A DNA stretch of 51,687 bases, from contig CAWUFA030000004.1 in assembly GCA_963921275.4 (NCBI GenBank), positions 1-51,687 on the forward strand, read 5' to 3'. Positions 273-40,366 of this stretch are shown piece by piece. Within the stretch, counting starts at the first letter, position 1. Each line of letters starts with the position of its first letter. The translations under genes and the position numbers were made by a program. Origin of the DNA: an uncultured Hormoscilla sp. GTDB lineage: Bacteria > Cyanobacteriota > Cyanobacteriia > Cyanobacteriales > Desertifilaceae. The notes beneath the pieces were generated by a model, which saw nothing but the letters and a program-made list of their open reading frames with translations, was not told the origin of the DNA and did not search any database.

Positions 273-436
273 ATACTTACCTGACGAGGGTCTTCACCGT
301 GATCACGTAGGCGGTGGGCCCAGGGCGAGGCCCGACCATTGCACTTCGGCCGGGTTGACCCCCGCGATTATCTCAAATGTGGATAACTCGGTCGTAGAAT
401 TTCTGTTGGTGGGGACTGCGTTCGCGCTATCCCTTA
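273..436 (+). ncRNA. U1: U1 spliceosomal snRNA (first copy; 25 intact copies plus 1 interrupted)
   Basis: 5' end ATACTTACCTG, loop I GATCACG (U1-70K site), loop II CATTGCAC (U1A site), Sm site AATTTCTG, terminal stem GGGGACTGCGTTCGCGCTATCCC. Copies start at 273, 1651, 3029, 4407, 5785, 7163, 8541, 9919, 11297, 12664, 14031, 15409, 16787, 18165, 19543, 20921, 22299, 23677, 25055 (split), 42344, 43711, 45089, 46467, 47843, 49226 and 50591. Confidence 0.97.
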
Positions 437-569
437 ATTGTCGTCGCTTTTAATCGCTGCCCACACTTTGCCAGCCAGCTTATCAGTTCGTTTCGAGTCG
501 ATTTTGCAAAAGAACTAGCTCATAGGCAAGCTGCTTCGCTTAAAAAGCTCGTTTTCGCAAAACGCTATC

Positions 570-688
570 GCCTACGACCATACCACGTTGAACGCACCCC
601 ATCTCGTCCGATCTGGGAAGTTAAGCAACGTCGGGCTCGGTTAGTACTTGGATGGGTGACCGCCTGGGAATACCGAGTGTTGTAGGCT
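570..688 (+). rRNA. 5S rRNA: 5S rRNA (first copy; 26 copies)
   Basis: GCCTACGACCATACC...AGTTAAGC (box A)...TGGATGGGTGACCGCCTGGGAATACC...GTTGTAGGC, followed by an oligo-T run. Copies start at 570, 1948, 3326, 4704, 6082, 7460, 8838, 10216, 11594, 12961, 14328, 15706, 17084, 18462, 19840, 21218, 22596, 23974, 41263, 42641, 44008, 45386, 46764, 48140, 49521 and 50888. Confidence 0.98.
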
Positions 689-710
689 TTTGCTTGAATG
701 TTTTTTTTTT
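688..710 (+). terminator. Pol III terminator of 5S (T4 plus backup T10); present in every unit
   Basis: TTTT at 688-691 directly after the 5S 3' end, and T10 at 701-710. Confidence 0.8.
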
Positions 711-821
711 CAAAACAAGCGCGCCAACTTGTGACGAAAGTTGCGTTTTGGCACTCGAAATCAAACCGCAAGCAGAAGAGCGTTCAAAGGCAATAAAGCG
801 GCTGCTCGACGATTGTTGGGC

Positions 822-869
822 ATTCTATTTGAATAAGGTAAGTTGAGCGCTATGAAGTGCTGTTTTTTT
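822..869 (+). ncRNA. SL RNA: Spliced-leader (SL) RNA gene with a Ciona-type 16-nt leader (first copy; 26 copies)
   Basis: ATTCTATTTGAATAAG (822-837) matches the 16-nt ascidian leader known from Ciona. It is followed directly by donor GTAAGT, a 6-bp hairpin (846-861) and T7. The 3' end is approximate. Copies start at 822, 2200, 3578, 4956, 6334, 7712, 9090, 10468, 11846, 13213, 14580, 15958, 17336, 18714, 20092, 21470, 22848, 24226, 41515, 42893, 44260, 45638, 47015, 48395, 49772 and 51140. Confidence 0.88.
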
Positions 870-975
870 CAAAAATAAAGGACGAGCTGCGAGAACCTAT
901 CTCAAAAGCTCCTTAAAGATATATATCTAGAATATCAACGTGTGGTGATGGTGCGTGCGTGCACGCATTGTTTAA

Positions 976-1138
976 CCCTTTGAGGATCATAATATTCTAA
1001 TTTATAAAATTTGAGACAATTCCTTTATTGTTTGGAAACAACAAAGTTACAATGAATTTCAGAAAAATGGTTATTACGTCATAATGATATAAGATGTAAC
1101 AATCATGTAACATATGTGTTACATTATCCCTCAAAGGG
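976..1138. mobile_element. piggyBac-like non-autonomous MITE (163 bp); present in every unit
   Basis: TTAA (972-975) + CCCTTTGAGG ... CCTCAAAGGG + TTAA (1139-1142). This gives a perfect 10-bp TIR starting with CCC, a TTAA TSD and an AT-rich interior unlike the rest of the unit. Confidence 0.72.
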
Positions 1139-1182
1139 TTAAGAAAGAGAGGGGGAACGGCGGTGTTGATTCGTACTTGGAA

Positions 1183-1373
1183 ATCGCTTCTCGGCTCTCA
1201 AGAGCTAAGATCAAGTGTAGTATCTGTTCTTCTCAGTTTAATACCTGGGACGGCCAGCATCGCTGGGCCCTTGTATTAATCGTATGTTTGAACAGAGGGT
1301 GACGATTGAAAGCTTGCTTTGTCGCACCCACGGGTTGTCCCGGTATTGCAGTACCTCCGGGCTCGGCCCACAC
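1183..1373 (+). ncRNA. U2: U2 spliceosomal snRNA (first full copy; 26 copies, last truncated by the window end)
   Basis: ATCGCTTCTCGGC...GCTAAGATCAAGTGTAGTATCTGTTCTT with branch-point recognition GTAGTA, and loop IV TATTGCAGTACC. Copies start at 1183, 2561, 3939, 5317, 6695, 8073, 9451, 10829, 12196, 13563, 14941, 16319, 17697, 19075, 20453, 21831, 23209, 24587, 41876, 43243, 44621, 45999, 47375, 48758, 50122 and 51501. Confidence 0.96.
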
Positions 1374-4300
1374 CCGCCACTGGCGGGTTTGCTTGTTGTT
1401 TCATTTCAATCTCGATTGATTCAATAGTGATTTTCTTGCATCTTTTCTTTTGCATTTCAAAACGACGACGATTGCTTGCTGGTCGTCATTCTAGAGCCAG
1501 CCTTCAAATTTCAAAAGCGCTCGAGCGAGGGCCTTCAGGAAAATCATGCTCTCCCCTTACCAAGCGCTCGAGCAAGCCAGCAAGCAAAAGTAACCACAGG
1601 TGTGCCACTGAAGCGCTTCAATCAGGCTCGTGGCAAGCGCGCAAAAACTCATACTTACCTGACGAGGGTCTTCACCGTGATCACGTAGGCGGTGGGCCCA
1701 GGGCGAGGCCCGACCATTGCACTTCGGCCGGGTTGACCCCCGCGATTATCTCAAATGTGGATAACTCGGTCGTAGAATTTCTGTTGGTGGGGACTGCGTT
1801 CGCGCTATCCCTTAATTGTCGTCGCTTTTAATCGCTGCCCACACTTTGCCAGCCAGCTTATCAGTTCGTTTCGAGTCGATTTTGCAAAAGAACTAGCTCA
1901 TAGGCAAGCTGCTTCGCTTAAAAAGCTCGTTTTCGCAAAACGCTATCGCCTACGACCATACCACGTTGAACGCACCCCATCTCGTCCGATCTGGGAAGTT
2001 AAGCAACGTCGGGCTCGGTTAGTACTTGGATGGGTGACCGCCTGGGAATACCGAGTGTTGTAGGCTTTTGCTTGAATGTTTTTTTTTTCAAAACAAGCGC
2101 GCCAACTTGTGACGAAAGTTGCGTTTTGGCACTCGAAATCAAACCGCAAGCAGAAGAGCGTTCAAAGGCAATAAAGCGGCTGCTCGACGATTGTTGGGCA
2201 TTCTATTTGAATAAGGTAAGTTGAGCGCTATGAAGTGCTGTTTTTTTCAAAAATAAAGGACGAGCTGCGAGAACCTATCTCAAAAGCTCCTTAAAGATAT
2301 ATATCTAGAATATCAACGTGTGGTGATGGTGCGTGCGTGCACGCATTGTTTAACCCTTTGAGGATCATAATATTCTAATTTATAAAATTTGAGACAATTC
2401 CTTTATTGTTTGGAAACAACAAAGTTACAATGAATTTCAGAAAAATGGTTATTACGTCATAATGATATAAGATGTAACAATCATGTAACATATGTGTTAC
2501 ATTATCCCTCAAAGGGTTAAGAAAGAGAGGGGGAACGGCGGTGTTGATTCGTACTTGGAAATCGCTTCTCGGCTCTCAAGAGCTAAGATCAAGTGTAGTA
2601 TCTGTTCTTCTCAGTTTAATACCTGGGACGGCCAGCATCGCTGGGCCCTTGTATTAATCGTATGTTTGAACAGAGGGTGACGATTGAAAGCTTGCTTTGT
2701 CGCACCCACGGGTTGTCCCGGTATTGCAGTACCTCCGGGCTCGGCCCACACCCGCCACTGGCGGGTTTGCTTGTTGTTTCATTTCAATCTCGATTGATTC
2801 AATAGTGATTTTCTTGCATCTTTTCTTTTGCATTTCAAAACGACGACGATTGCTTGCTGGTCGTCATTCTAGAGCCAGCCTTCAAATTTCAAAAGCGCTC
2901 GAGCGAGGGCCTTCAGGAAAATCATGCTCTCCCCTTACCAAGCGCTCGAGCAAGCCAGCAAGCAAAAGTAACCACAGGTGTGCCACTGAAGCGCTTCAAT
3001 CAGGCTCGTGGCAAGCGCGCAAAAACTCATACTTACCTGACGAGGGTCTTCACCGTGATCACGTAGGCGGTGGGCCCAGGGCGAGGCCCGACCATTGCAC
3101 TTCGGCCGGGTTGACCCCCGCGATTATCTCAAATGTGGATAACTCGGTCGTAGAATTTCTGTTGGTGGGGACTGCGTTCGCGCTATCCCTTAATTGTCGT
3201 CGCTTTTAATCGCTGCCCACACTTTGCCAGCCAGCTTATCAGTTCGTTTCGAGTCGATTTTGCAAAAGAACTAGCTCATAGGCAAGCTGCTTCGCTTAAA
3301 AAGCTCGTTTTCGCAAAACGCTATCGCCTACGACCATACCACGTTGAACGCACCCCATCTCGTCCGATCTGGGAAGTTAAGCAACGTCGGGCTCGGTTAG
3401 TACTTGGATGGGTGACCGCCTGGGAATACCGAGTGTTGTAGGCTTTTGCTTGAATGTTTTTTTTTTCAAAACAAGCGCGCCAACTTGTGACGAAAGTTGC
3501 GTTTTGGCACTCGAAATCAAACCGCAAGCAGAAGAGCGTTCAAAGGCAATAAAGCGGCTGCTCGACGATTGTTGGGCATTCTATTTGAATAAGGTAAGTT
3601 GAGCGCTATGAAGTGCTGTTTTTTTCAAAAATAAAGGACGAGCTGCGAGAACCTATCTCAAAAGCTCCTTAAAGATATATATCTAGAATATCAACGTGTG
3701 GTGATGGTGCGTGCGTGCACGCATTGTTTAACCCTTTGAGGATCATAATATTCTAATTTATAAAATTTGAGACAATTCCTTTATTGTTTGGAAACAACAA
3801 AGTTACAATGAATTTCAGAAAAATGGTTATTACGTCATAATGATATAAGATGTAACAATCATGTAACATATGTGTTACATTATCCCTCAAAGGGTTAAGA
3901 AAGAGAGGGGGAACGGCGGTGTTGATTCGTACTTGGAAATCGCTTCTCGGCTCTCAAGAGCTAAGATCAAGTGTAGTATCTGTTCTTCTCAGTTTAATAC
4001 CTGGGACGGCCAGCATCGCTGGGCCCTTGTATTAATCGTATGTTTGAACAGAGGGTGACGATTGAAAGCTTGCTTTGTCGCACCCACGGGTTGTCCCGGT
4101 ATTGCAGTACCTCCGGGCTCGGCCCACACCCGCCACTGGCGGGTTTGCTTGTTGTTTCATTTCAATCTCGATTGATTCAATAGTGATTTTCTTGCATCTT
4201 TTCTTTTGCATTTCAAAACGACGACGATTGCTTGCTGGTCGTCATTCTAGAGCCAGCCTTCAAATTTCAAAAGCGCTCGAGCGAGGGCCTTCAGGAAAAT

Positions 4301-7300
4301 CATGCTCTCCCCTTACCAAGCGCTCGAGCAAGCCAGCAAGCAAAAGTAACCACAGGTGTGCCACTGAAGCGCTTCAATCAGGCTCGTGGCAAGCGCGCAA
4401 AAACTCATACTTACCTGACGAGGGTCTTCACCGTGATCACGTAGGCGGTGGGCCCAGGGCGAGGCCCGACCATTGCACTTCGGCCGGGTTGACCCCCGCG
4501 ATTATCTCAAATGTGGATAACTCGGTCGTAGAATTTCTGTTGGTGGGGACTGCGTTCGCGCTATCCCTTAATTGTCGTCGCTTTTAATCGCTGCCCACAC
4601 TTTGCCAGCCAGCTTATCAGTTCGTTTTGAGTCGATTTTGCAAAAGAACTAGCTCATAGGCAAGCTGCTTCGCTTAAAAAGCTCGTTTTCGCAAAACGCT
4701 ATCGCCTACGACCATACCACGTTGAACGCACCCCATCTCGTCCGATCTGGGAAGTTAAGCAACGTCGGGCTCGGTTAGTACTTGGATGGGTGACCGCCTG
4801 GGAATACCGAGTGTTGTAGGCTTTTGCTTGAATGTTTTTTTTTTCAAAACAAGCGCGCCAACTTGTGACGAAAGTTGCGTTTTGGCACTCGAAATCAAAC
4901 CGCAAGCAGAAGAGCGTTCAAAGGCAATAAAGCGGCTGCTCGACGATTGTTGGGCATTCTATTTGAATAAGGTAAGTTGAGCGCTATGAAGTGCTGTTTT
5001 TTTCAAAAATAAAGGACGAGCTGCGAGAACCTATCTCAAAAGCTCCTTAAAGATATATATCTAGAATATCAACGTGTGGTGATGGTGCGTGCGTGCACGC
5101 ATTGTTTAACCCTTTGAGGATCATAATATTCTAATTTATAAAATTTGAGACAATTCCTTTATTGTTTGGAAACAACAAAGTTACAATGAATTTCAGAAAA
5201 ATGGTTATTACGTCATAATGATATAAGATGTAACAATCATGTAACATATGTGTTACATTATCCCTCAAAGGGTTAAGAAAGAGAGGGGGAACGGCGGTGT
5301 TGATTCGTACTTGGAAATCGCTTCTCGGCTCTCAAGAGCTAAGATCAAGTGTAGTATCTGTTCTTCTCAGTTTAATACCTGGGACGGCCAGCATCGCTGG
5401 GCCCTTGTATTAATCGTATGTTTGAACAGAGGGTGACGATTGAAAGCTTGCTTTGTCGCACCCACGGGTTGTCCCGGTATTGCAGTACCTCCGGGCTCGG
5501 CCCACACCCGCCACTGGCGGGTTTGCTTGTTGTTTCATTTCAATCTCGATTGATTCAATAGTGATTTTCTTGCATCTTTTCTTTTGCATTTCAAAACGAC
5601 GACGATTGCTTGCTGGTCGTCATTCTAGAGCCAGCCTTCAAATTTCAAAAGCGCTCGAGCGAGGGCCTTCAGGAAAATCATGCTCTCCCCTTACCAAGCG
5701 CTCGAGCAAGCCAGCAAGCAAAAGTAACCACAGGTGTGCCACTGAAGCGCTTCAATCAGGCTCGTGGCAAGCGCGCAAAAACTCATACTTACCTGACGAG
5801 GGTCTTCACCGTGATCACGTAGGCGGTGGGCCCAGGGCGAGGCCCGACCATTGCACTTCGGCCGGGTTGACCCCCGCGATTATCTCAAATGTGGATAACT
5901 CGGTCGTAGAATTTCTGTTGGTGGGGACTGCGTTCGCGCTATCCCTTAATTGTCGTCGCTTTTAATCGCTGCCCACACTTTGCCAGCCAGCTTATCAGTT
6001 CGTTTCGAGTCGATTTTGCAAAAGAACTAGCTCATAGGCAAGCTGCTTCGCTTAAAAAGCTCGTTTTCGCAAAACGCTATCGCCTACGACCATACCACGT
6101 TGAACGCACCCCATCTCGTCCGATCTGGGAAGTTAAGCAACGTCGGGCTCGGTTAGTACTTGGATGGGTGACCGCCTGGGAATACCGAGTGTTGTAGGCT
6201 TTTGCTTGAATGTTTTTTTTTTCAAAACAAGCGCGCCAACTTGTGACGAAAGTTGCGTTTTGGCACTCGAAATCAAACCGCAAGCAGAAGAGCGTTCAAA
6301 GGCAATAAAGCGGCTGCTCGACGATTGTTGGGCATTCTATTTGAATAAGGTAAGTTGAGCGCTATGAAGTGCTGTTTTTTTCAAAAATAAAGGACGAGCT
6401 GCGAGAACCTATCTCAAAAGCTCCTTAAAGATATATATCTAGAATATCAACGTGTGGTGATGGTGCGTGCGTGCACGCATTGTTTAACCCTTTGAGGATC
6501 ATAATATTCTAATTTATAAAATTTGAGACAATTCCTTTATTGTTTGGAAACAACAAAGTTACAATGAATTTCAGAAAAATGGTTATTACGTCATAATGAT
6601 ATAAGATGTAACAATCATGTAACATATGTGTTACATTATCCCTCAAAGGGTTAAGAAAGAGAGGGGGAACGGCGGTGTTGATTCGTACTTGGAAATCGCT
6701 TCTCGGCTCTCAAGAGCTAAGATCAAGTGTAGTATCTGTTCTTCTCAGTTTAATACCTGGGACGGCCAGCATCGCTGGGCCCTTGTATTAATCGTATGTT
6801 TGAACAGAGGGTGACGATTGAAAGCTTGCTTTGTCGCACCCACGGGTTGTCCCGGTATTGCAGTACCTCCGGGCTCGGCCCACACCCGCCACTGGCGGGT
6901 TTGCTTGTTGTTTCATTTCAATCTCGATTGATTCAATAGTGATTTTCTTGCATCTTTTCTTTTGCATTTCAAAACGACGACGATTGCTTGCTGGTCGTCA
7001 TTCTAGAGCCAGCCTTCAAATTTCAAAAGCGCTCGAGCGAGGGCCTTCAGGAAAATCATGCTCTCCCCTTACCAAGCGCTCGAGCAAGCCAGCAAGCAAA
7101 AGTAACCACAGGTGTGCCACTGAAGCGCTTCAATCAGGCTCGTGGCAAGCGCGCAAAAACTCATACTTACCTGACGAGGGTCTTCACCGTGATCACGTAG
7201 GCGGTGGGCCCAGGGCGAGGCCCGACCATTGCACTTCGGCCGGGTTGACCCCCGCGATTATCTCAAATGTGGATAACTCGGTCGTAGAATTTCTGTTGGT

Positions 7301-10300
7301 GGGGACTGCGTTCGCGCTATCCCTTAATTGTCGTCGCTTTTAATCGCTGCCCACACTTTGCCAGCCAGCTTATCAGTTCGTTTCGAGTCGATTTTGCAAA
7401 AGAACTAGCTCATAGGCAAGCTGCTTCGCTTAAAAAGCTCGTTTTCGCAAAACGCTATCGCCTACGACCATACCACGTTGAACGCACCCCATCTCGTCCG
7501 ATCTGGGAAGTTAAGCAACGTCGGGCTCGGTTAGTACTTGGATGGGTGACCGCCTGGGAATACCGAGTGTTGTAGGCTTTTGCTTGAATGTTTTTTTTTT
7601 CAAAACAAGCGCGCCAACTTGTGACGAAAGTTGCGTTTTGGCACTCGAAATCAAACCGCAAGCAGAAGAGCGTTCAAAGGCAATAAAGCGGCTGCTCGAC
7701 GATTGTTGGGCATTCTATTTGAATAAGGTAAGTTGAGCGCTATGAAGTGCTGTTTTTTTCAAAAATAAAGGACGAGCTGCGAGAACCTATCTCAAAAGCT
7801 CCTTAAAGATATATATCTAGAATATCAACGTGTGGTGATGGTGCGTGCGTGCACGCATTGTTTAACCCTTTGAGGATCATAATATTCTAATTTATAAAAT
7901 TTGAGACAATTCCTTTATTGTTTGGAAACAACAAAGTTACAATGAATTTCAGAAAAATGGTTATTACGTCATAATGATATAAGATGTAACAATCATGTAA
8001 CATATGTGTTACATTATCCCTCAAAGGGTTAAGAAAGAGAGGGGGAACGGCGGTGTTGATTCGTACTTGGAAATCGCTTCTCGGCTCTCAAGAGCTAAGA
8101 TCAAGTGTAGTATCTGTTCTTCTCAGTTTAATACCTGGGACGGCCAGCATCGCTGGGCCCTTGTATTAATCGTATGTTTGAACAGAGGGTGACGATTGAA
8201 AGCTTGCTTTGTCGCACCCACGGGTTGTCCCGGTATTGCAGTACCTCCGGGCTCGGCCCACACCCGCCACTGGCGGGTTTGCTTGTTGTTTCATTTCAAT
8301 CTCGATTGATTCAATAGTGATTTTCTTGCATCTTTTCTTTTGCATTTCAAAACGACGACGATTGCTTGCTGGTCGTCATTCTAGAGCCAGCCTTCAAATT
8401 TCAAAAGCGCTCGAGCGAGGGCCTTCAGGAAAATCATGCTCTCCCCTTACCAAGCGCTCGAGCAAGCCAGCAAGCAAAAGTAACCACAGGTGTGCCACTG
8501 AAGCGCTTCAATCAGGCTCGTGGCAAGCGCGCAAAAACTCATACTTACCTGACGAGGGTCTTCACCGTGATCACGTAGGCGGTGGGCCCAGGGCGAGGCC
8601 CGACCATTGCACTTCGGCCGGGTTGACCCCCGCGATTATCTCAAATGTGGATAACTCGGTCGTAGAATTTCTGTTGGTGGGGACTGCGTTCGCGCTATCC
8701 CTTAATTGTCGTCGCTTTTAATCGCTGCCCACACTTTGCCAGCCAGCTTATCAGTTCGTTTCGAGTCGATTTTGCAAAAGAACTAGCTCATAGGCAAGCT
8801 GCTTCGCTTAAAAAGCTCGTTTTCGCAAAACGCTATCGCCTACGACCATACCACGTTGAACGCACCCCATCTCGTCCGATCTGGGAAGTTAAGCAACGTC
8901 GGGCTCGGTTAGTACTTGGATGGGTGACCGCCTGGGAATACCGAGTGTTGTAGGCTTTTGCTTGAATGTTTTTTTTTTCAAAACAAGCGCGCCAACTTGT
9001 GACGAAAGTTGCGTTTTGGCACTCGAAATCAAACCGCAAGCAGAAGAGCGTTCAAAGGCAATAAAGCGGCTGCTCGACGATTGTTGGGCATTCTATTTGA
9101 ATAAGGTAAGTTGAGCGCTATGAAGTGCTGTTTTTTTCAAAAATAAAGGACGAGCTGCGAGAACCTATCTCAAAAGCTCCTTAAAGATATATATCTAGAA
9201 TATCAACGTGTGGTGATGGTGCGTGCGTGCACGCATTGTTTAACCCTTTGAGGATCATAATATTCTAATTTATAAAATTTGAGACAATTCCTTTATTGTT
9301 TGGAAACAACAAAGTTACAATGAATTTCAGAAAAATGGTTATTACGTCATAATGATATAAGATGTAACAATCATGTAACATATGTGTTACATTATCCCTC
9401 AAAGGGTTAAGAAAGAGAGGGGGAACGGCGGTGTTGATTCGTACTTGGAAATCGCTTCTCGGCTCTCAAGAGCTAAGATCAAGTGTAGTATCTGTTCTTC
9501 TCAGTTTAATACCTGGGACGGCCAGCATCGCTGGGCCCTTGTATTAATCGTATGTTTGAACAGAGGGTGACGATTGAAAGCTTGCTTTGTCGCACCCACG
9601 GGTTGTCCCGGTATTGCAGTACCTCCGGGCTCGGCCCACACCCGCCACTGGCGGGTTTGCTTGTTGTTTCATTTCAATCTCGATTGATTCAATAGTGATT
9701 TTCTTGCATCTTTTCTTTTGCATTTCAAAACGACGACGATTGCTTGCTGGTCGTCATTCTAGAGCCAGCCTTCAAATTTCAAAAGCGCTCGAGCGAGGGC
9801 CTTCAGGAAAATCATGCTCTCCCCTTACCAAGCGCTCGAGCAAGCCAGCAAGCAAAAGTAACCACAGGTGTGCCACTGAAGCGCTTCAATCAGGCTCGTG
9901 GCAAGCGCGCAAAAACTCATACTTACCTGACGAGGGTCTTCACCGTGATCACGTAGGCGGTGGGCCCAGGGCGAGGCCCGACCATTGCACTTCGGCCGGG
10001 TTGACCCCCGCGATTATCTCAAATGTGGATAACTCGGTCGTAGAATTTCTGTTGGTGGGGACTGCGTTCGCGCTATCCCTTAATTGTCGTCGCTTTTAAT
10101 CGCTGCCCACACTTTGCCAGCCAGCTTATCAGTTCGTTTCGAGTCGATTTTGCAAAAGAACTAGCTCATAGGCAAGCTGCTTCGCTTAAAAAGCTCGTTT
10201 TCGCAAAACGCTATCGCCTACGACCATACCACGTTGAACGCACCCCATCTCGTCCGATCTGGGAAGTTAAGCAACGTCGGGCTCGGTTAGTACTTGGATG

Positions 10301-13300
10301 GGTGACCGCCTGGGAATACCGAGTGTTGTAGGCTTTTGCTTGAATGTTTTTTTTTTCAAAACAAGCGCGCCAACTTGTGACGAAAGTTGCGTTTTGGCAC
10401 TCGAAATCAAACCGCAAGCAGAAGAGCGTTCAAAGGCAATAAAGCGGCTGCTCGACGATTGTTGGGCATTCTATTTGAATAAGGTAAGTTGAGCGCTATG
10501 AAGTGCTGTTTTTTTCAAAAATAAAGGACGAGCTGCGAGAACCTATCTCAAAAGCTCCTTAAAGATATATATCTAGAATATCAACGTGTGGTGATGGTGC
10601 GTGCGTGCACGCATTGTTTAACCCTTTGAGGATCATAATATTCTAATTTATAAAATTTGAGACAATTCCTTTATTGTTTGGAAACAACAAAGTTACAATG
10701 AATTTCAGAAAAATGGTTATTACGTCATAATGATATAAGATGTAACAATCATGTAACATATGTGTTACATTATCCCTCAAAGGGTTAAGAAAGAGAGGGG
10801 GAACGGCGGTGTTGATTCGTACTTGGAAATCGCTTCTCGGCTCTCAAGAGCTAAGATCAAGTGTAGTATCTGTTCTTCTCAGTTTAATACCTGGGACGGC
10901 CAGCATCGCTGGGCCCTTGTATTAATCGTATGTTTGAACAGAGGGTGACGATTGAAAGCTTGCTTTGTCGCACCCACGGGTTGTCCCGGTATTGCAGTAC
11001 CTCCGGGCTCGGCCCACACCCGCCACTGGCGGGTTTGCTTGTTGTTTCATTTCAATCTCGATTGATTCAATAGTGATTTTCTTGCATCTTTTCTTTTGCA
11101 TTTCAAAACGACGACGATTGCTTGCTGGTCGTCATTCTAGAGCCAGCCTTCAAATTTCAAAAGCGCTCGAGCGAGGGCCTTCAGGAAAATCATGCTCTCC
11201 CCTTACCAAGCGCTCGAGCAAGCCAGCAAGCAAAAGTAACCACAGGTGTGCCACTGAAGCGCTTCAATCAGGCTCGTGGCAAGCGCGCAAAAACTCATAC
11301 TTACCTGACGAGGGTCTTCACCGTGATCACGTAGGCGGTGGGCCCAGGGCGAGGCCCGACCATTGCACTTCGGCCGGGTTGACCCCCGCGATTATCTCAA
11401 ATGTGGATAACTCGGTCGTAGAATTTCTGTTGGTGGGGACTGCGTTCGCGCTATCCCTTAATTGTCGTCGCTTTTAATCGCTGCCCACACTTTGCCAGCC
11501 AGCTTATCAGTTCGTTTCGAGTCGATTTTGCAAAAGAACTAGCTCATAGGCAAGCTGCTTCGCTTAAAAAGCTCGTTTTCGCAAAACGCTATCGCCTACG
11601 ACCATACCACGTTGAACGCACCCCATCTCGTCCGATCTGGGAAGTTAAGCAACGTCGGGCTCGGTTAGTACTTGGATGGGTGACCGCCTGGGAATACCGA
11701 GTGTTGTAGGCTTTTGCTTGAATGTTTTTTTTTTCAAAACAAGCGCGCCAACTTGTGACGAAAGTTGCGTTTTGGCACTCGAAATCAAACCGCAAGCAGA
11801 AGAGCGTTCAAAGGCAATAAAGCGGCTGCTCGACGATTGTTGGGCATTCTATTTGAATAAGGTAAGTTGAGCGCTATGAAGTGCTGTTTTTTTCAAAAAT
11901 AAAGGACGAGCTGCGAGAACCTATCTCAAAAGCTCCTTAAAGATATATATCTAGAATATCAACGTGTGGTGATGGTGCGTGCGTGCACGCATTGTTTAAC
12001 CCTTTGAGGATCATAATATTCTAATTTATAAAATTTGAGACAATTCCTTTATTGTTTGGAAACAACAAAGTTACAATGAATTTCAGAAAAATGGTTATTA
12101 CGTCATAATGATATAAGATGTAACATATGTGTTACATTATCCCTCAAAGGGTTAAGAAAGAGAGGGGGAACGGCGGTGTTGATTCGTACTTGGAAATCGC
12201 TTCTCGGCTCTCAAGAGCTAAGATCAAGTGTAGTATCTGTTCTTCTCAGTTTAATACCTGGGACGGCCAGCATCGCTGGGCCCTTGTATTAATCGTATGT
12301 TTGAACAGAGGGTGACGATTGAAAGCTTGCTTTGTCGCACCCACGGGTTGTCCCGGTATTGCAGTACCTCCGGGCTCGGCCCACACCCGCCACTGGCGGG
12401 TTTGCTTGTTGTTTCATTTCAATCTCGATTGATTCAATAGTGATTTTCTTGCATCTTTTCTTTTGCATTTCAAAACGACGACGATTGCTTGCTGGTCGTC
12501 ATTCTAGAGCCAGCCTTCAAATTTCAAAAGCGCTCGAGCGAGGGCCTTCAGGAAAATCATGCTCTCCCCTTACCAAGCGCTCGAGCAAGCCAGCAAGCAA
12601 AAGTAACCACAGGTGTGCCACTGAAGCGCTTCAATCAGGCTCGTGGCAAGCGCGCAAAAACTCATACTTACCTGACGAGGGTCTTCACCGTGATCACGTA
12701 GGCGGTGGGCCCAGGGCGAGGCCCGACCATTGCACTTCGGCCGGGTTGACCCCCGCGATTATCTCAAATGTGGATAACTCGGTCGTAGAATTTCTGTTGG
12801 TGGGGACTGCGTTCGCGCTATCCCTTAATTGTCGTCGCTTTTAATCGCTGCCCACACTTTGCCAGCCAGCTTATCAGTTCGTTTCGAGTCGATTTTGCAA
12901 AAGAACTAGCTCATAGGCAAGCTGCTTCGCTTAAAAAGCTCGTTTTCGCAAAACGCTATCGCCTACGACCATACCACGTTGAACGCACCCCATCTCGTCC
13001 GATCTGGGAAGTTAAGCAACGTCGGGCTCGGTTAGTACTTGGATGGGTGACCGCCTGGGAATACCGAGTGTTGTAGGCTTTTGCTTGAATGTTTTTTTTT
13101 TCAAAACAAGCGCGCCAACTTGTGACGAAAGTTGCGTTTTGGCACTCGAAATCAAACCGCAAGCAGAAGAGCGTTCAAAGGCAATAAAGCGGCTGCTCGA
13201 CGATTGTTGGGCATTCTATTTGAATAAGGTAAGTTGAGCGCTATGAAGTGCTGTTTTTTTCAAAAATAAAGGACGAGCTGCGAGAACCTATCTCAAAAGC

Positions 13301-25148: not shown

Positions 25149-25735
25149 AGTAGTATATAACGACACTTTCGACCCGGATTTTGCGGCGCTCTGCGGCGCC
25201 CTACGTCATTTCCGAACGTGACTTCTGAGGTGATACATGACCTTGAAGTACATTGCAAACACGTGTAAACAAATGGTAACGTGTACCAACTTGTAAACAA
25301 ATGGCAACGTGTACTTGTAAACAAACGGTAACACAAAGACAACATGTACCAGCTTGTAAACAACTTAAACCAATATCAATACAACTTGTAAATAAAACTT
25401 GATTTGTGGGCACCCCTCTTGAGAATACCGCCACTTCGATATTAACTGCATTTTGAACATATGGTCTGTAAGATAGCTAGAAATCTATCACATAAACATG
25501 GGGGCGTGAAAGTCTCAGCCAATCATCAATGCTGAATCACGACTATCAACAAAAACTGATGCCAACGGAAGCTAGAAAGCTCCGAGGTGGTCACGTTTTC
25601 TAACGGCTTGAAAGTAGCTATAAACAATTTTTTGGAGTTGATCACGTTCTCTTGAAAAGATAAACAATTTTTAGCAATGAGCGAATAAATATTTTTAACT
25701 GCATTACACCAATGTTTTTATTTCACCAATGTTTT
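25149..25735 (+). repeat. Left terminal inverted repeat (~587 bp)
   Basis: Reverse complement of 40468-41053. The differences I saw are one substitution (25304 vs 40898) and one G-run indel (~25500). Confidence 0.95.
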
Positions 25736-25852
25736 ATTGCACAATTGTTTGATAGAATAAGACAAGTCCAGACAAGTATGATGATTCTTTTTTTTGTGCT
25801 AGCTGTTGTGTATATAAACCGTGTTTTTAGCGAGAAAATCAGAAGAAGAAAA

Positions 25853-26551
25853 ATGGAAAACTGTGGTGAGACACACACTTCAAATGCTGACGACTATGAA
25901 GAGCGAGTGGAGAATATCGATACTACAACTACGCACTCCCCATGTTATGAAGAGTTGGTAGAGCAAACAGCGTTGTTGAGGCGTGCAAGAAACCATCCAG
26001 AAGAAGCAAGAAAAATACGAAAAATCTTCCTCGACATTGACAAAGAAGGAAAATCAATACCCGCAGACGGTGAGATGTTGAGAAAAGGCGTGCTGACTGT
26101 CTCAAGAGGAAAAACTCTCTTTTCAACCGACCAGCTTATCCAAGTGTGTATACATATGTTCGATGGCCTGCCTTTTGTAGCTTTCAAAGGCCCAACAGAC
26201 GCCAGACCATATGTCATAGTCGTTTTCTCAGCTGACTGCCAATACGGTGATGTTTGTGAAGTGAAAACGCGGTTGGAGATTTTCAAAAAAGAGGCGGCTG
26301 TAGAAAACTTTCTTATCAGATTTAAAGTGGAAGCTATCTTTTCACCCGAGAAATATTTTCAACATCTACAAGATCGATCATCCGGATTCATCATTAGAAA
26401 CGAAAACTGCGGTATCAGTAAGGAGCTAGCCACTCTTGTGAAAACCTTGAAACACACAGCTGGGAAGAAAAAACGTTCAAGTAGTCTGCCTAGAAGTACT
26501 GAACTTTATCAAAAGAAGAGAAAACCATCTCCACTTAACATAAAACAATAA
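25853..26551 (+). CDS. Hypothetical Polinton protein (~232 aa from MENCGE; the ORF track starts at 25712)
   Basis: Long open frame with TATATAAA at 25811 ahead of the ATG at 25853. Basic NLS-like C-terminus (KKKR, KKRK). No domain recognised. Confidence 0.7.
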   Translation: MENCGETHTSNADDYEERVENIDTTTTHSPCYEELVEQTALLRRARNHPEEARKIRKIFLDIDKEGKSIPADGEMLRKGVLTVSRGKTLFSTDQLIQVCIHMFDGLPFVAFKGPTDARPYVIVVFSADCQYGDVCEVKTRLEIFKKEAAVENFLIRFKVEAIFSPEKYFQHLQDRSSGFIIRNENCGISKELATLVKTLKHTAGKKKRSSSLPRSTELYQKKRKPSPLNIKQ

Positions 26552-26608
26552 ATGTGTGATTTTAACGTATGTAACCGTCTTTAGATTTGAGTAAAATTTG
26601 TTTAAAAA

Positions 26609-27205
26609 ATGTTGTGCCCTTCTTTCGAATCTGAAGAATCGCGAATCTTAACCTTCACAAACAACTGGCCTCACCGAGTCGATAATTTAAGTCCTGAACG
26701 AATGGCAAAAGCTGGATTTTTATACAGAGGTAGCGATGATCGAGCAATATGCTTTCAATGTGGTCTTTCTCTTTATCAGTGGTCTGATAGCGACATCCCA
26801 GAAATTGAGCACGCGAAATACTGGTCCGCGTGTGCGTATCTAGAGAGAACGTTTGGATCTGAATTCATCACCCAACACAACAGCTTTCGCATCCCAGAAG
26901 AGGAGTTTTTATCGGGAACGAGATTTGGTTTTGCTACTCCTGAAGAAGTAGCAGATCCAACACTAACGAGAAACCCTCCAGTTGAAAATGAAGAACCGAA
27001 CATAACCCCCCTAACTGAAGCAAAAGAGTGTGACACATCTCAAGAACTTGTATGCAAAGTGTGTTTTGATGCGAGAATTAATGCTTTAACCATGCCGTGT
27101 TCTCACTGTTTCGGATGTCTAGCTTGTACTACAAAGCTTTATTCAAAGGAATGTCCCATATGTCGTGTGATTATTTTGGATGTGAATCGTATTTATATTG
27201 TATAA
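26609..27205 (+). CDS. iap: Inhibitor-of-apoptosis protein: one BIR domain plus C-terminal RING
   Basis: BIR: RILTF..WP...MAKAGF.Y.G..D...CFQC...W...D.PEIEH.K....C. RING: CKVC...PCSH..C..C...CPICR...IY. AATAAA at 27204. Confidence 0.93.
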   Translation: MLCPSFESEESRILTFTNNWPHRVDNLSPERMAKAGFLYRGSDDRAICFQCGLSLYQWSDSDIPEIEHAKYWSACAYLERTFGSEFITQHNSFRIPEEEFLSGTRFGFATPEEVADPTLTRNPPVENEEPNITPLTEAKECDTSQELVCKVCFDARINALTMPCSHCFGCLACTTKLYSKECPICRVIILDVNRIYIV

Positions 27206-27252
27206 TAAAGACACTCGATTGTATTCAATTCTGTTTATTACACGTAAAGCGG

Positions 27253-27702
27253 TTACAATTTCAATAAATTCTGAACAAAACACTCAACAGTTTTATCATT
27301 TACACTAACATTATCGGAGAAATGAGTCAATATCTCGGTTAAAGAGCAACCACGCGAGCGAAATAAGATATAGTACACGGTATAATGTCCACAGACTTCA
27401 GATATCAAGCTTTGTAGGGTCTTCGAGTTGTAGGTCCAGGATGAGGAGTGTGAATCTAAAAAATCCGTCAAACCATAAACAATTGGATGTAGACCATAGC
27501 TATCGAAAAATTCAGCAGATCTCTGATTGTTAAAAAACATAGCAACCCAGTGTTCTCCAGGGGAAGTGCTTGGGTCGGTGTTAACAACATAACTCCCAGG
27601 ATACTCCACAGTAGGTAGTTGATCTTTAGGATAAACACCTTTAAAAATCTTTTTTGCGCAGGCGTCATTTTTTAATATCCTCTCAATCTGCAGTGTATCC
27701 AT
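27253..27702 (-). CDS. Adenain-like cysteine (maturation) protease
   Basis: GEHWVA (His), FFDSYG (Asp), LQS...VCGHY (oxyanion Gln, catalytic Cys). Minus-strand polyA signal at 27234-27239. Confidence 0.93.
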   Translation of the reverse strand: MDTLQIERILKNDACAKKIFKGVYPKDQLPTVEYPGSYVVNTDPSTSPGEHWVAMFFNNQRSAEFFDSYGLHPIVYGLTDFLDSHSSSWTYNSKTLQSLISEVCGHYTVYYILFRSRGCSLTEILTHFSDNVSVNDKTVECFVQNLLKL

Positions 27703-29000
27703 CAGTAATCAGTTAAAACGTTTCTATCTCTATCGATTTGAAGTAGGTTGTCAAATTCTGCATGAATGATGACATTCATTGTTTCTGTAGGAGGAGTAGA
27801 GAAGTGCAACTCCAGGCGAATGTTTCCAGTTTTTATCAGTTGGAAATGAGCACAGGAAGCGGATAAATCCGGCGTAAGGTCTATTGCATACAAAGAATGA
27901 CCGAGAGGGAAGGAATCACGAGAGATTCCGTTTCCGGAGTCGTTGTAGTAAAGACCGGAGTCGGTGAAGAGCGACAAAAAACTTCGAATATAGCGGTTTT
28001 GACCGTAGTTTAATTGCAGAGGATTGGCTGGTATTTGCTCCCCATCTCTGTACAAAGAAACAAAATTGACTGAGCAGTGCTTGAAGTTGAAAGGATTCTT
28101 TCCAATAGCTCCGTTGAAGGCTTCATTTTCAACCAAACCGAAAACTATCCGCCGCGGTAACTGTCCTAGAAAAAGATTCTCTTTCGAGATGGAATAAGTA
28201 CCACGCGGGACTGTAAAACTTTTTACCTCTACTCTTCGAATTGGATATTTTGCAGAACTGCTTTGTAAAGTCCGAATGTGACTCAGTTGGACCGCGTCAC
28301 TAGGTACCGATTTCCGACAATAAAGGGAAGCATTCGTAAGTTCTACCATGTAATCTCCTGACCCCATCAAACAAAAAACATCTTTCGATCTGTTCAACCG
28401 CAGCTTCACCTCCACTCCGCTTAAGAGATAGCGGTTCTGGAAGCATAAATCTAAGTGGAGTTTACCAATCATATCCAGTTCTTTGCTGCCGGATGCTAAC
28501 TCTTTCCGTTTTTGGAATCCTTTATTCGCATTGGTTGAAGAGTCAAATTTGCTTGCTGTGTCTCCATACCAAAGAGAACAACTTAACTGAGATTTTTTAG
28601 CTTCCTCCCCAAAACTTAAAAGCGTTTCGATATAAGCTCGATAAGGGTATGTGTTGGATGCTTGGGTAACTAAAACCCCATTCAAATATAAATCACATTG
28701 AGACCACAAAGCGTGCAAGAAATTGCACACAGGAGCAACATTGCTATCATTCCCTAAAACTGATCCGTCTTGTTTTTTAATCTTCGCGCGAACATGTAGT
28801 AATGTATTCGAAAGATCGATGTAGGAGCTGTTTTCTCCTGGAATGAGGAATTCGATAGGACCATTATTTGATAAAATAGAGACAGGATTGTATTGAACGT
28901 ATTTTCCTTGCTCCAAAGAAGTTTGAGAGGGAGGGACAGAGAATAAATCCAACTCCTCTTTAATCGATTCACACGACTCTGTATGAATCAGACTCGCCAT
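27702..29000 (-). CDS. Polinton major capsid protein (double jelly-roll type)
   Basis: 432 aa with typical Polinton capsid motifs (LDLF..P..Q, GPIEF, YIDL..T.L, NTYPYRAYIETLL, NPFNF, FDNLLQID). Adjacent to the protease gene. Confidence 0.88.
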   Translation of the reverse strand: MASLIHTESCESIKEELDLFSVPPSQTSLEQGKYVQYNPVSILSNNGPIEFLIPGENSSYIDLSNTLLHVRAKIKKQDGSVLGNDSNVAPVCNFLHALWSQCDLYLNGVLVTQASNTYPYRAYIETLLSFGEEAKKSQLSCSLWYGDTASKFDSSTNANKGFQKRKELASGSKELDMIGKLHLDLCFQNRYLLSGVEVKLRLNRSKDVFCLMGSGDYMVELTNASLYCRKSVPSDAVQLSHIRTLQSSSAKYPIRRVEVKSFTVPRGTYSISKENLFLGQLPRRIVFGLVENEAFNGAIGKNPFNFKHCSVNFVSLYRDGEQIPANPLQLNYGQNRYIRSFLSLFTDSGLYYNDSGNGISRDSFPLGHSLYAIDLTPDLSASCAHFQLIKTGNIRLELHFSTPPTETMNVIIHAEFDNLLQIDRDRNVLTDY

Positions 29001-29001
29001 C

Positions 29002-29397
29002 TTAACTGAATATGTCTGTCTTGACTCTTTTCGCTTTTGAAGAGGATTTCTTTTTTCTTTTTGTGGTTTTTTTAATTCTTTTCCGTTCCCCCGGAAACGT
29101 GGCTACTTTTCGTAGTAAATTAGAACCGGTCTCTTTTGTTCTGTTCAGAGCAGCTTGTTTGAGGTTCTTACCTTCCAGAATATCAGAAACGAAGTTGGTT
29201 CCGCTTTTCAAAACCTCCTTTCCTATGGATTTAGCTCCTCGCTTTACAAGAGGTAAAACCGATCGACCTAAAGAGGCAAAGATGTTTCCTAACCCATACC
29301 CTAGCTGCCTTTGCGAGCCGGAGAAATATCCTTTTCCGGTCTGGGAGAGATAATAATCTTCATACAGTTGAGGATTACAACAATATCGTGGTCTCAT
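29002..29397 (-). CDS. Conserved basic Polinton protein, putative virion core protein (~131 aa from MRPRY)
   Basis: YEDYY..Q.G.G...QxGYGLG followed by an amphipathic helix and a Lys/Arg-rich tail ending DIFS. Ends 1 nt before the capsid ATG. Confidence 0.75.
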   Translation of the reverse strand: MRPRYCCNPQLYEDYYLSQTGKGYFSGSQRQLGYGLGNIFASLGRSVLPLVKRGAKSIGKEVLKSGTNFVSDILEGKNLKQAALNRTKETGSNLLRKVATFPGERKRIKKTTKRKKKSSSKAKRVKTDIFS

Positions 29398-29497
29398 GTT
29401 GTTAACGTTCTCCAACAAGGTTTGCGAAAGTAATGTGTGAGTAGAAGATGTTGTTTTCTTTTAACCGGATTATAGTTAATTTTTTCAAGTGTCCTCA

Positions 29498-29770
29498 TCA
29501 CGTATTCGTTGTAAGACTCTCTGATTGCTTTGAAATGTGGCTAGTGCTCGGAGTTTGATAAAGAGCATTCTTTCTTCTTTTGATTACTGGTGATGGTAGC
29601 AGATACCCTAAACAGCTAGATAACAACGAAATCCAGAGATTAATGTTCTCATTTCCAGTAGTGATGTTGTAGATGCTAAACCCAACCACAAAATAAATTG
29701 CAATAATCTGCGAGAAAAACACAATTTCGCTTTTAGGGATGTCTTTACCACAAAAAGACCAATCACCCAT
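29498..29770 (-). CDS. Small two-TM membrane protein (90 aa)
   Basis: Two hydrophobic segments (IVFFSQIIAIYFVVGFSIY and LWISLLSSCLGYLLPSP) followed by a basic patch. Its ATG overlaps the end of the integrase gene. Confidence 0.7.
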   Translation of the reverse strand: MGDWSFCGKDIPKSEIVFFSQIIAIYFVVGFSIYNITTGNENINLWISLLSSCLGYLLPSPVIKRRKNALYQTPSTSHISKQSESLTTNT

Positions 29771-30800
29771 AATTTATAAGATCTTTCTCTGTAATCCAAG
29801 AATTATATTTTTCTGGGTACCCCGACCAACTCACTAGAAACTCCACTCTCCCTCGTCTCTTACGCTTCTTTAAAATGCTGTCGATTTCGTAAATTTCGTT
29901 ATCTTTTATAGACAACTGCAACTCTTTTTCATAAAACGTTCCCATAATGGGTTCACCGCTAAGATCTTTTAATCTATAATACGGTGGGTTTCCGGGAAGA
30001 GCTTTCTGTACGATGAATAACTCCTTTGACCAGTTTTGTTCATAACCCTTTCTAAAAAGGTTTTTTATCAAACTCACGCGTACAAAATCGTTTTCAGATA
30101 ATTTTGGTTTCTTTTTCTCTGCATCTCCGTATTGGCGAATCCACAGTGTTTGCTGATCTTCCCGTCTAGCAGCTGAAGGAGTGGTTTTTATTGTTCTGTG
30201 ATAGCTGTTATTATAAGAAACCATCAGGTCGTCCAAGACATCGACGTATTTGAACGTATTATTGGCTTTAAAATATCGCCAAAGCTTCGTTTTCAAAGTC
30301 CTAATTAATCTTTCAGCAAGAGCTGCTTTGGTGTCAAAATTATATGTCTGAAAAAGTGAAATGTTTTGCTGTCTCAACCATTTTTCTAACGCTTTGTTGG
30401 TAAATTCGGTTCCGCGGTCGGTTTGCAAGTAAACAGGGTTGGGAGCACGGCGGTAAATATTTTCAAAAGCTTGAATAACAGCTGTCGATTTTTTACTTTT
30501 CACCGGCTCACAATAAGCGAATCTGCTAAAAACGTCTATAACAATGAGAAGAAATTGATTTCCGTCGTTGCTCTTTTTCAAAAGCGAAAAATCTGCTAGG
30601 TCAGCCTGATGTTGAAAGTCTGAATAGGGGGCGATTGTTTTCCTTCTTTGATATTTTTTTCTTGCTGGTTTAAAAAGCGTATACACATCCTGAGTTTCCA
30701 ACCACTTTTTTACCGGTTTTTTTAAAGCTTTTTGAAATTTAACCACTCCAGAAAAGGATTGAGGTTTTTTCAAAGAGTAGTAACTAGCAAACTCTCCCAT
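29763..30800 (-). CDS. Retroviral-like (rve, DDE) integrase with C-terminal chromodomain
   Basis: Catalytic D (QADLAD), D (QTDRGTEF) and E (AERLIRTLK). Chromodomain YEIDSIL...FLVSWSGYPEKYNSWI. First ATG at 30800; the ORF track starts at 30806. Confidence 0.95.
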   Translation of the reverse strand: MGEFASYYSLKKPQSFSGVVKFQKALKKPVKKWLETQDVYTLFKPARKKYQRRKTIAPYSDFQHQADLADFSLLKKSNDGNQFLLIVIDVFSRFAYCEPVKSKKSTAVIQAFENIYRRAPNPVYLQTDRGTEFTNKALEKWLRQQNISLFQTYNFDTKAALAERLIRTLKTKLWRYFKANNTFKYVDVLDDLMVSYNNSYHRTIKTTPSAARREDQQTLWIRQYGDAEKKKPKLSENDFVRVSLIKNLFRKGYEQNWSKELFIVQKALPGNPPYYRLKDLSGEPIMGTFYEKELQLSIKDNEIYEIDSILKKRKRRGRVEFLVSWSGYPEKYNSWITEKDLINYG

Positions 30801-30854
30801 AACCAATCTCAGAGCTGATGGATTGTTTTTGGTTTTATACCGTTTTACCTTCTT

Positions 30855-31685
30855 TTATAACTGACTCAACTTCTTCCTTCGAAAATGGAGGGTAACAATG
30901 ACCCGCCCCTTGCGAAACCGAATCGAGTTCCCTTGGTCGTCGCGAAGATTAATTTGAATTTCTGAGAAAGACTTTTTCATTACTGGTTGATATTGCAATT
31001 TGTCATATCTTTTACTAATAACGGAGCCCGGTTTTCCCTGACTTGCTATAACCCCCAGTAACGGAGCGAGGGTGTGACCCACAATACGATTCTCAATGAC
31101 ATCGCAATACACATAAATATTGTTTATTGGATTCATATCCACCACGCGCTCAGAACGAAAAATACCAACATTATGGAATGTACTCTCTGCAAACCCCAAC
31201 ATTTCGGTTAGAAAAGGGGCTAAATGAACCAAAACCGATGGCCTCGCCACTCCATCATTATCTACTCTAGTAGGAGCGGAAGAGTTATTCCTTATATTCA
31301 ATTGAACTAATTGTGAATTCTCATTGTACCGCAAATCTAATAAAAAATCGATTGGGTTTGTCAAAGTACCATTCTCTATGAGCTCCTCATTCTTCGCTTG
31401 GAAATCATGCTTCATTTGATTCAGCAATAAACGGATTAACTGTTTCGGTTCTTGGTAATACCCAGATGGTAATTTTGATTTAATCTGGATCTCACCTCTT
31501 TGATAGATGACCCAATAGCTTGTTGTATCAACATTATACCACGAATGATTAAACTGAATTTCTGCCAACCCCACCTCCCAAGACCCTGGAAGTTGCAACT
31601 CTTTGGGTAAATGAACAATGTAGTCTGAAATCTTATTTTCTGGGTAATAATCAGGTGAAGAATTGCTAGGTAAAGTTACATACAT
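30855..31685 (-). CDS. Polinton minor capsid (penton-like) protein
   Basis: N-terminal MYVTLPSNSS..YYPEN...Y.V.LP....L.G.WEVGL.EI and C-terminal IYVYCD.I....VG...PLL / I.I.LRD..G / VTLHFR are typical of this family. ATG at 31685; the ORF track starts at 31721. Confidence 0.85.
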   Translation of the reverse strand: MYVTLPSNSSPDYYPENKISDYIVHLPKELQLPGSWEVGLAEIQFNHSWYNVDTTSYWVIYQRGEIQIKSKLPSGYYQEPKQLIRLLLNQMKHDFQAKNEELIENGTLTNPIDFLLDLRYNENSQLVQLNIRNNSSAPTRVDNDGVARPSVLVHLAPFLTEMLGFAESTFHNVGIFRSERVVDMNPINNIYVYCDVIENRIVGHTLAPLLGVIASQGKPGSVISKRYDKLQYQPVMKKSFSEIQINLRDDQGNSIRFRKGRVIVTLHFRRKKLSQL

Positions 31686-31907
31686 CTTGAGATGGTGAGT
31701 GCTTTCAGTGTCACACAGCAAATGGTAACATTTTTCTATAGAGAGGCTTTATATTTCACAAATTTTTTCCTTAACATTTGTTTCAAGTGAAATAACACTA
31801 CATTTACCTCAAAAACATTTCTCTATCATCTATACTTCACATAGCAGGTGAGTGGTTACAACATGTTTGAAGTAAATTATTCAGAGAACACAGATGAGTT
31901 GCAATGA

Positions 31908-32097
31908 CAAACTGTTAACACTCCTAGACACACAAACTAAGAGGGTTTCTCTGTTACATTTGCAATGATGATTAAATCTTACAATCCCAAAACACAAAGA
32001 AAACAGATTATTTGTGATGCAATGATAAAAGACAATTCAAACTGTTACTACTCCTAGACACATAAACTAAGAGAGTTTCTCTGCAACATTTGCAATA
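31908..32097 (+). repeat. Diverged ~60-bp direct repeat (period 130) in the non-coding interior
   Basis: CAAACTGTTA..ACTCCTAGACACA.AAACTAAGAG.GTTTCTCTG..ACATTTGCAAT occurs at ~31908 and ~32038. Confidence 0.75.
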
Positions 32098-34162: not shown

Positions 34163-34458
34163 TTTGAAATATCGAAGACAGTGCAAAGGTTTTAGTATTT
34201 ATAACCCTAATCTTTTTTCAAACAACTGTTTTATGGTTGTGTTTACTTCTTAGAGTTATAGCCTCTATCTAGCTATTTTTCAACAGCTGTGGTCGTCACG
34301 TAGGAAATCTGTAATGCTTTTTTCTGCAGAGACAACTACCGGAAAACGTGGAGGTTATAAAAACAGTCTTAAACTCTAAAAATTCATAAAATCAAGCAAA
34401 ACGTGAGTAAGATGACAGAGCTATGCTGTTATTTTCACTAACTGTTTTATTTTACAGA

Positions 34459-40334: not shown

Positions 40335-40366
40335 TTTTGAATGTGTGTTTTGATTTCTGCTTGCGT

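Follow-up and report, generated by a model that had tools for sequence, protein, structure and literature searches.

Dinoflagellates carry spliced-leader (SL), 5S rRNA, and U6 genes in one cluster, and taeniid tapeworms possibly have U1 beside their SL genes. According to the available excerpts of the published sources, linkage of 5S and SL genes occurs in Oikopleura dioica (PMC8008620), calanoid copepods (PMC4664967), and Caenorhabditis briggsae, and in the 5S-SL unit of C. elegans RNA polymerase II (Pol II) and RNA polymerase III (Pol III) work side by side, each on its own genes (bioRxiv 10.64898/2026.01.07.698080). The same kind of material describes tandem 5S-U1-U2 units in Acropora corals (PMC8167085) and, as cited in that paper, 5S-U2 linkage in oysters, 5S-U1 linkage in a crustacean, and a four-gene 5S-U1-U2-U5 unit in Solea senegalensis; hake have linked U1-U2 units (PMC4696792). 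Ciona intestinalis possesses ∼670 SL genes in a 264-bp repeat (PMC7986045, PMC6836712). SL RNAs have been proposed to arise from U1 copies lodged in 5S arrays (PMC4233971). In the excerpts at hand, a report on the concerted evolution of flatworm SL arrays (PMC12582326) does not mention U1 or 5S rRNA, a survey of Didemnum non-coding RNAs (PMC5006418) does not mention a spliced leader or linkage, and a 2026 paper on tunicate splicing (PMC13326754) does not mention trans-splicing or 5S rRNA. No unit uniting an SL gene with U1 and U2, no four-way unit, and no SL RNA gene for aplousobranchs was found in the literature searched, which included few subscription papers and was represented partly by excerpts. 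Here we describe a window (the whole stretch of DNA that was analyzed, 51,687 nt) in which U1, 5S, SL, and U2 genes share one tandemly repeated unit.

The array, its genes, and their source

The window contains 26 tandem units with a period of 1378 bp, each in the order U1-5S-SL-U2 on the + strand (26/26 units, with no minus-strand copies in a check of motif order). At the Rfam gathering score we counted 25 whole U1, 26 5S, and 26 U2 genes, the 26th U1 copy being interrupted by an insertion and the last U2 truncated at the contig end. These numbers bear out the first-pass annotation, which had reported four co-oriented genes in one ∼1.4-kb unit present ∼26 times in a 1:1:1:1 ratio: there are 26 copies each of 5S, SL, and U2, plus 25 whole U1 genes and one that is split. 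The Rfam check that it had proposed for one unit returned whole-model matches above gathering for U1, 5S, and U2, and no match for the SL gene. The major features of the array and of its first set of genes are listed below.

1-25148, + strand: left array arm, 18 units plus the 5′ part of a U1 (Rfam and repeat analysis)
25149-41053, no strand assigned: 15,905-bp insertion, identified from its sequence as a Polinton/Maverick, after nt 94 of one U1, with ∼598-bp inverted ends and the 6-bp target duplication CCCGCG
41054-51687, + strand: right array arm, 8 units, with greater variability (Rfam and repeat analysis)
273-435, + strand: U1 snRNA gene, first of 26 (Rfam RF00003, 137 bits against a gathering score of 69.5, model positions 1-166)
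540-544, + strand: candidate TATA-like TTAAA, −30 to −26 of 5S (read from the sequence; putative role)
570-688, + strand: 5S rRNA gene (Rfam RF00001, 116 bits against a gathering score of 38, whole model)
688-710, + strand: T4 and T10 runs behind 5S, resembling a Pol III terminator (putative role)
766-773, + strand: putative proximal promoter element CCGCAAGC, at −56 relative to the SL gene (26/26 units, once per unit)
822-837, + strand: 16-nt SL exon, equal to the Ciona leader (exact match, 16/16 bases)
838-869, + strand: intron part of the SL gene, with GTAAGT donor, predicted hairpin (846-861), and T7 run (863-869), kept in a second animal
892-909, + strand: putative 3′-end signal of 18 nt, downstream of the SL gene (26/26 units, identical in the second animal)
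972-1142, no strand assigned: 163-bp miniature element (976-1138) between two TTAA, with a 10-bp terminal inverted repeat and 28% GC
1183-1376, + strand: U2 snRNA gene (Rfam RF00004, 152 bits against a gathering score of 46, whole model)

The U1 gene matches the whole model and has an intact 5′ end, the U2 gene includes the branch-point recognition sequence GTGTAGTA, and the 5S gene is followed by a T run. Pol III terminates at T runs. The TTAAA upstream of 5S may be compared with the WTAAA motif at −29 to −25 of vertebrate 5S genes, as given in the excerpt of PMC8789306.

Complete U1-to-U1 units were identical in 14 of 24 cases. The others differ by a few substitutions in common, by an 11-bp deletion (4 units, located on either side of the 15.9-kb insertion), or by single-base indels that lie in the last 5 kb of the array and resemble read errors. 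Twelve further copies of the unit lie outside the window, eight of them SL-bearing on contig C7 and four on contig C2, and the gene order is invariant there as well. Contig C2 (1-9304) is a variant array with a 2457-bp period, in which a 1.08-kb decayed piggyBac-like piece occupies a TTAA 3′ of the SL gene and each 5S copy has 5 changes; its last SL copy switches to unrelated AT-rich DNA 8 bases past the exon. No tRNA genes were found in the analysis of the array.

The array contig (C5) is animal DNA inside a 7.03-Mb bacterial bin that contains a 6.88-Mb chromosome. Contig C3 of this bin holds a complete ascidian mitochondrial genome of 15 kb in doubled form (17.6% GC). Its COX1, translated with the ascidian code, has no more than 84% identity to named relatives, with values of 84%, 82%, 79%, 78%, and 76% for Rhopalaea, Aplidium, Clavelina, Diplosoma, and Ciona, respectively. 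Because the co-binned COX1 is closest to the first four of these, we infer that the host of the array is an aplousobranch ascidian; array and mitochondrion likely derive from one animal. The tunicate origin assumed in the first-pass annotation is upheld. The leader was absent from the genomes of relatives of the Hormoscilla bin (0/60). Among 24 listed sequencing runs, 16 from 13 studies contain 61-81% of the unit's sampled words, although these runs are perhaps not independent; 4 RNA or guessed-RNA runs among those listed contain 5-6% of the words, a result with no bearing on expression. Despite a contamination rating of 1%, this bin includes no fewer than four contigs of animal DNA. Its contig C4 is a 64-bp satellite and its contig C6 has a phage-like appearance. 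The possibility that C6 is host rDNA was rejected, with no Rfam match in the first 40 of its 42 kb and ORFs that are phage-like.

The probable spliced-leader gene and the array of a second animal

The 16-mer of the SL exon is identical to the C. intestinalis leader as printed in PMC7986045 and has 26 exact occurrences in the window, compared with 0.07 expected from shuffles allowing two mismatches; these occurrences represent one event copied 26 times, with a chance of ∼1e-6 per unit. The exon is followed directly by the GTAAGT donor in 26/26 copies (by motif order), and this donor is complementary to the U1 5′ end. If the 3′ end lies at the T run, the SL RNA is likely ∼46-48 nt long, compared with 46 nt for that of Ciona (excerpt of PMC7986045).

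Bacterial genome contigs (185,579 genomes) were scanned for the exact 18-base sequence comprising the leader and GT, which yielded 24 loci. U1 or U2 was located near the leader at two of these (L023 and L030), both on a single 17-kb contig (L162) of an Endozoicomonas bin, which we take to be from another ascidian species. The unit of this second animal is 1864 bp long and has one copy each of U1, SL, and U2, in that order and on one strand. Its U1 matches that of the window at 159/163 bases and its U2 is 94% identical, with the first 70 bases unchanged, whereas no significant alignment was obtained for the U1-SL and U2-U1 spacers (68-239 of 500 shuffles scored as high). Head-to-tail units are near-identical within a species while most spacers are unalignable between the two animals, as in concerted evolution. 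The Rfam scores of the window genes are below those of the second animal, by 13 bits for U1 and 5 bits for U2, a difference that counts against the account favored below. The usual Sm pattern is AUUUUUG, and the Sm sites of both animals deviate from it in U2 (AUGUUUG, window 1284-1290) and in U1 (AUUUCUG, window 398-406). Directly behind U2, both animals have a short G+C-rich hairpin (window 1372-1386; L023 2391-2409) of differing sequence, possibly a part of 3′-end formation.

The two SL genes have 24 consecutive bases in common, spanning GGC, the exon, and GTAAG. These are followed in both by a predicted hairpin with a four-base loop in register, a run of seven Ts, and, ∼22 bases farther on, the 18-mer, whose conservation score was reached by 0/500 shuffles. 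Across the two animals, 11 of 12 cells of the hairpin are paired, compared with 25-58% in controls with slid partners, and 3 of its 6 pairs are altered on both sides. Against a conserved fold, the paired-change test uses two sequences only and is not significant (65/500 shuffles were as good), and the short SL folds do not exceed shuffles in stability (z −0.6 to −1.1). A longer candidate, an SL RNA of ∼91 nt with three hairpins, was rejected: it folds well in the window (z −2.3) but fails in the second animal (z +0.2). The Ciona-type Sm motif AGCUUUGG is absent from 822-912 and, within 25 bases of the donor, from the second animal. The T7 run behind the hairpin is not closed by G and departs from the usual Sm pattern; an Sm site of an unusual kind and a terminator are both possible readings. 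On the basis of its cross-species conservation the SL gene is well supported, and we consider it very probably a working SL RNA gene.

Rfam did not detect a 5S gene in the second animal at the gathering score, nor at E values up to 10 in the U1-U2 stretch. Inspection by eye revealed a 5S-like piece of 18-37 nt between U1 and SL of this animal, at a distance of 150 bases from U1; in the window, the corresponding piece of 5S follows U1 at 167 bases. The score of this piece was reached by 6, 17, and 103 of 2000 dinucleotide shuffles under three scorings, which hints that it could be a decayed ancestral 5S. A likeness between the region upstream of the window 5S and that upstream of the second animal's U2 was attributed to chance (200/500 shuffles).

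The motif CCGCAAGC is located at −56 in the SL genes of both animals and at −57 in the second animal's U1, occurring once per unit in the window and twice per unit in the second animal; that it was chosen by eye after inspection counts against it. Of the 6 regions upstream of Pol II genes, 5 contain the GCAAGC core at a position from −85 to −40, as opposed to ∼9-12% of random 45-base windows; the core is additionally found at −44 of 5S. The proximal element of animal snRNA genes sits at about this upstream position, so the plain reading is that the snRNA and SL genes have separate Pol II promoters. The second animal's U2 has GCAAGC at −71 and −67. For the window U2, no GCAAGC was found within 130 bases upstream, which is against this reading.

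Beyond these two arrays, a scan of metagenomes identified at least 122 leader loci, 80 of which had wide flanks, and no U1, U2, or 5S matches were present among the matches listed. Two of 111 distinct sites among the matches listed have a GTAAG donor. At least 100 dispersed leader + GT sites are followed by a few recurring sequence families (L038-L159), and in at least 28 distinct sites, with 55 having enough flank and with no control comparison, an ATG and a long open frame come close behind. These metagenome sites appear to be copies of retroelements, capped with the leader, from other ascidians. On viral contigs the leader occurred at 8 and 3 loci, which lacked U1 and U2 and whose likeness stopped at the 19-base pattern, and the leader was found in 0 of 20 further genomes of the genus Endozoicomonas.

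Mobile elements in the two arrays

The first-pass annotation had mentioned neither the 15.9-kb insertion in one U1 nor the 163-bp transposon-like element in every unit. The former appears complete, with near-perfect inverted ends of ∼598 bp. Among its proteins are a chromodomain-bearing integrase and a BIR-RING (apoptosis-inhibitor-like) protein, and protease-like and ATPase-like ORFs were recognized by eye from their motifs; the BIR-RING gene and a zinc-finger gene lie near the ends. The nearest Atlas clusters are a family-B2 DNA polymerase and a double-jelly-roll capsid, assignments that rest on these look-alikes, the polymerase and capsid ORFs having no direct match in Pfam, PHROGs, or PDB. 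The length within 15-20 kb, the long inverted ends, the 6-bp duplication, the integrase, and the family-B polymerase (by Atlas look-alike) lead us to identify the insertion as a Polinton/Maverick. From a single insertion, no preference for U1 can be deduced.

The miniature element is presumably of the piggyBac type, judging from known piggyBac ends. It is fixed, with 38 left and 38 right ends over three contigs, in all 38 units counted; it was not seen in the second animal. In every copy its right end is at −55 to −45 of U2, where the U2 promoter would be expected, and this placement speaks against transcription of U2 from a promoter of the usual kind. The window U2 copies either use other upstream sequence or are silent.

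The second animal's array has been invaded as well. A 6.8-kb non-LTR retrotransposon with endonuclease and reverse transcriptase (L162 ∼5420-12260) is located within U2 at ∼nt 33-35, and the poly(A) end of another element abuts a different U2 at the same position. The U2-inserted element resembles U2-targeting elements such as Keno. The last SL copy (L162 ∼735-2112) has GC where GT would stand and gives way directly to unrelated sequence. A zinc-knuckle-like ORF of 405 codons lies in that sequence, which is possibly an element inserting in SL genes.

Explanations of the array and its place among related systems

On balance, we favor as the most probable account that the four genes of the unit are each transcribed on their own and are homogenized by concerted evolution, U1-SL-U2 being an older core and 5S changeable. 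Pol III would transcribe 5S, using the promoter inside the gene and stopping at the T runs that follow. Pol II would transcribe U1 and SL from a common snRNA-type upstream element with the GCAAGC core, and it would transcribe U2 as well, whose promoter in the window species is not among the elements found. From an SL RNA of the predicted size, the first 16 bases would pass to pre-mRNAs by way of the GTAAGT donor, and recombination would homogenize the whole unit, presumably without selection on the linkage. The U1-SL-U2 trio would be the older core, common to the second animal, where the spacers have diverged. That animal has the trio but no intact 5S, so 5S gives the impression of being a changeable passenger, either gained in the window lineage or, somewhat more likely, decayed in the second animal.

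An unlikely, though not negligible, alternative is that the linkage itself is selected, with U1, SL, and U2 forming one co-regulated locus for splicing RNAs that has a common promoter factor and nuclear body and fixes their dosage. The retention of one gene order in two animals with spacers too diverged to align, the upstream motif in common, and the single copy of each gene per unit in the second array as well would all suit this explanation, as would the excerpted finding that Pol II foci at the nematode 5S-SL1 cluster track SL1 expression (bioRxiv 10.64898/2026.01.07.698080). However, tunicates can do without the trio, given that, in the available excerpts, Ciona SL genes are in a separate 264-bp unit (PMC7986045) and Oikopleura SL genes are with 5S (PMC8008620). 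Moreover, the presence of 5S varies, the window U2 does not have the common motif, and tandem units are able to persist without selection on their order. Two species are too few to separate neutral persistence from selection. We think it rather improbable that the array is partly dead, such that the miniature transposon displaced the U2 promoter, U2 and perhaps more is silent, and the working genes are in another array. The contrast between a window U2 without upstream GCAAGC and the −71/−67 copies of the second animal points in that direction, along with the transposon end so close to U2, the lower Rfam scores, and the variant unit of contig C2 with its extra piggyBac-like insert and five changes in 5S. 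Yet U2 gives a whole-model score of 152 bits and retains the same first 70 bases as the second animal, while the adjoining spacer is fully diverged, and 20 of 26 copies exhibit no decay, even if a recent loss would look alike.

We regard as very improbable a scheme in which a single precursor transcribed from the SL promoter is cleaved into SL and U2, with the 18-mer as processing signal, or in which SL is a Pol III-type unit ending at T7. Such schemes would accommodate the window U2 without an upstream motif, the retention of the T7 run and the 18-mer in both animals, and the 46-48 nt obtained for an end at the T run, close to the 46 nt of Ciona. Animal U2 and SL RNAs require their own Pol II cap, however, and the second animal's U2 has the motif and yet retains the 18-mer. 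That the array is an artefact of assembly or a chimera of the metagenome bin is scarcely credible: the contig does lie within a 7-Mb bacterial bin, its last 5 kb has indels like read errors, and exact copy number is unreliable in such contigs, but variant units recur, the insertion is flanked by a clean 6-bp duplication, a diverged array is on another contig, the same trio is found in the second animal, and much of the unit recurs in 16 of the 24 listed runs from 13 studies (61-81% of its words, in runs that are perhaps not independent). Beyond the account of separately transcribed genes in a concertedly evolving array, we offer as a low-probability conjecture that the U1-SL-U2 cassette is lineage-wide in aplousobranchs, uses one promoter element, and is selected for matched output of cis- and trans-splicing RNAs, 5S being optional; the SL RNA would do without the Ciona Sm site and rely on a new 3′ element, and the locus would be a living example of the U1/5S neighborhood proposed for SL origin.

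The arrangement of SL with U1 and U2 is apparently unreported, and it provides a large group of ascidians with an SL RNA gene. Three different arrangements of SL genes can now be distinguished within tunicates. The two-species comparison also provides short candidate control elements (the −56 motif, the 18-mer, and the T7 run) for a chordate SL gene whose promoter the excerpts at hand do not describe. The locus has a weak bearing on the question of a spliced-leader origin next to U1 within 5S arrays. Neither new chemistry nor a new pathway is revealed, and linkages of this type are known for their frequent gain and loss.

In the first-pass annotation the four-gene unit was called unusual and possibly undescribed. 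The second term stands as far as the searched literature and its excerpts extend, but the surprise was overrated, as units with 5S, U1, and U2, in one case with U5, are published. The mixing of Pol II with Pol III genes, which it had also considered unusual, is already shared by the 5S-SL units of nematodes and Oikopleura in the excerpts describing them. It had correctly stated that 5S-SL linkage (nematodes, Oikopleura) and 5S-U1/U2 linkage (for which the excerpts name corals, oysters, a crustacean, and sole) occur separately and that Ciona SL genes are in short repeats of their own, the excerpted 264-bp unit of PMC7986045.

According to those excerpts, the ascidian unit is like the Acropora and sole units in that 5S and several spliceosomal snRNA genes are tandemly repeated with Pol II and Pol III genes mixed, the sole unit also having four genes; unlike them, as no SL gene is reported there, it has an SL gene between 5S and U2. 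With the units of C. elegans, C. briggsae, Oikopleura, and copepods it shares the presence of SL and 5S in one repeated unit, whereas U1 and U2 are not mentioned in the excerpts for the nematode, Oikopleura, and copepod units, and the Oikopleura copies are mostly inverted pairs. The SL gene is like that of Ciona, as excerpted, in its identical 16-nt leader, the GGC directly upstream (compare the SLIDR extension), and its likely similar length; it differs by having a putative conserved hairpin, the T7 run, and the 18-mer instead of AGCUUUGG, and the 264-bp Ciona unit is too short for U1, 5S, and U2. The adjacency of U1, SL, and 5S in one concerted unit, with an upstream motif in common, matches the excerpted model of SL origin from U1 in 5S arrays, although adjacency does not establish descent of SL RNA from U1. 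We conclude that the U1-5S-SL-U2 arrangement is real and that it combines genes in a new way, within a class of small-RNA gene arrays that is familiar and prone to change.
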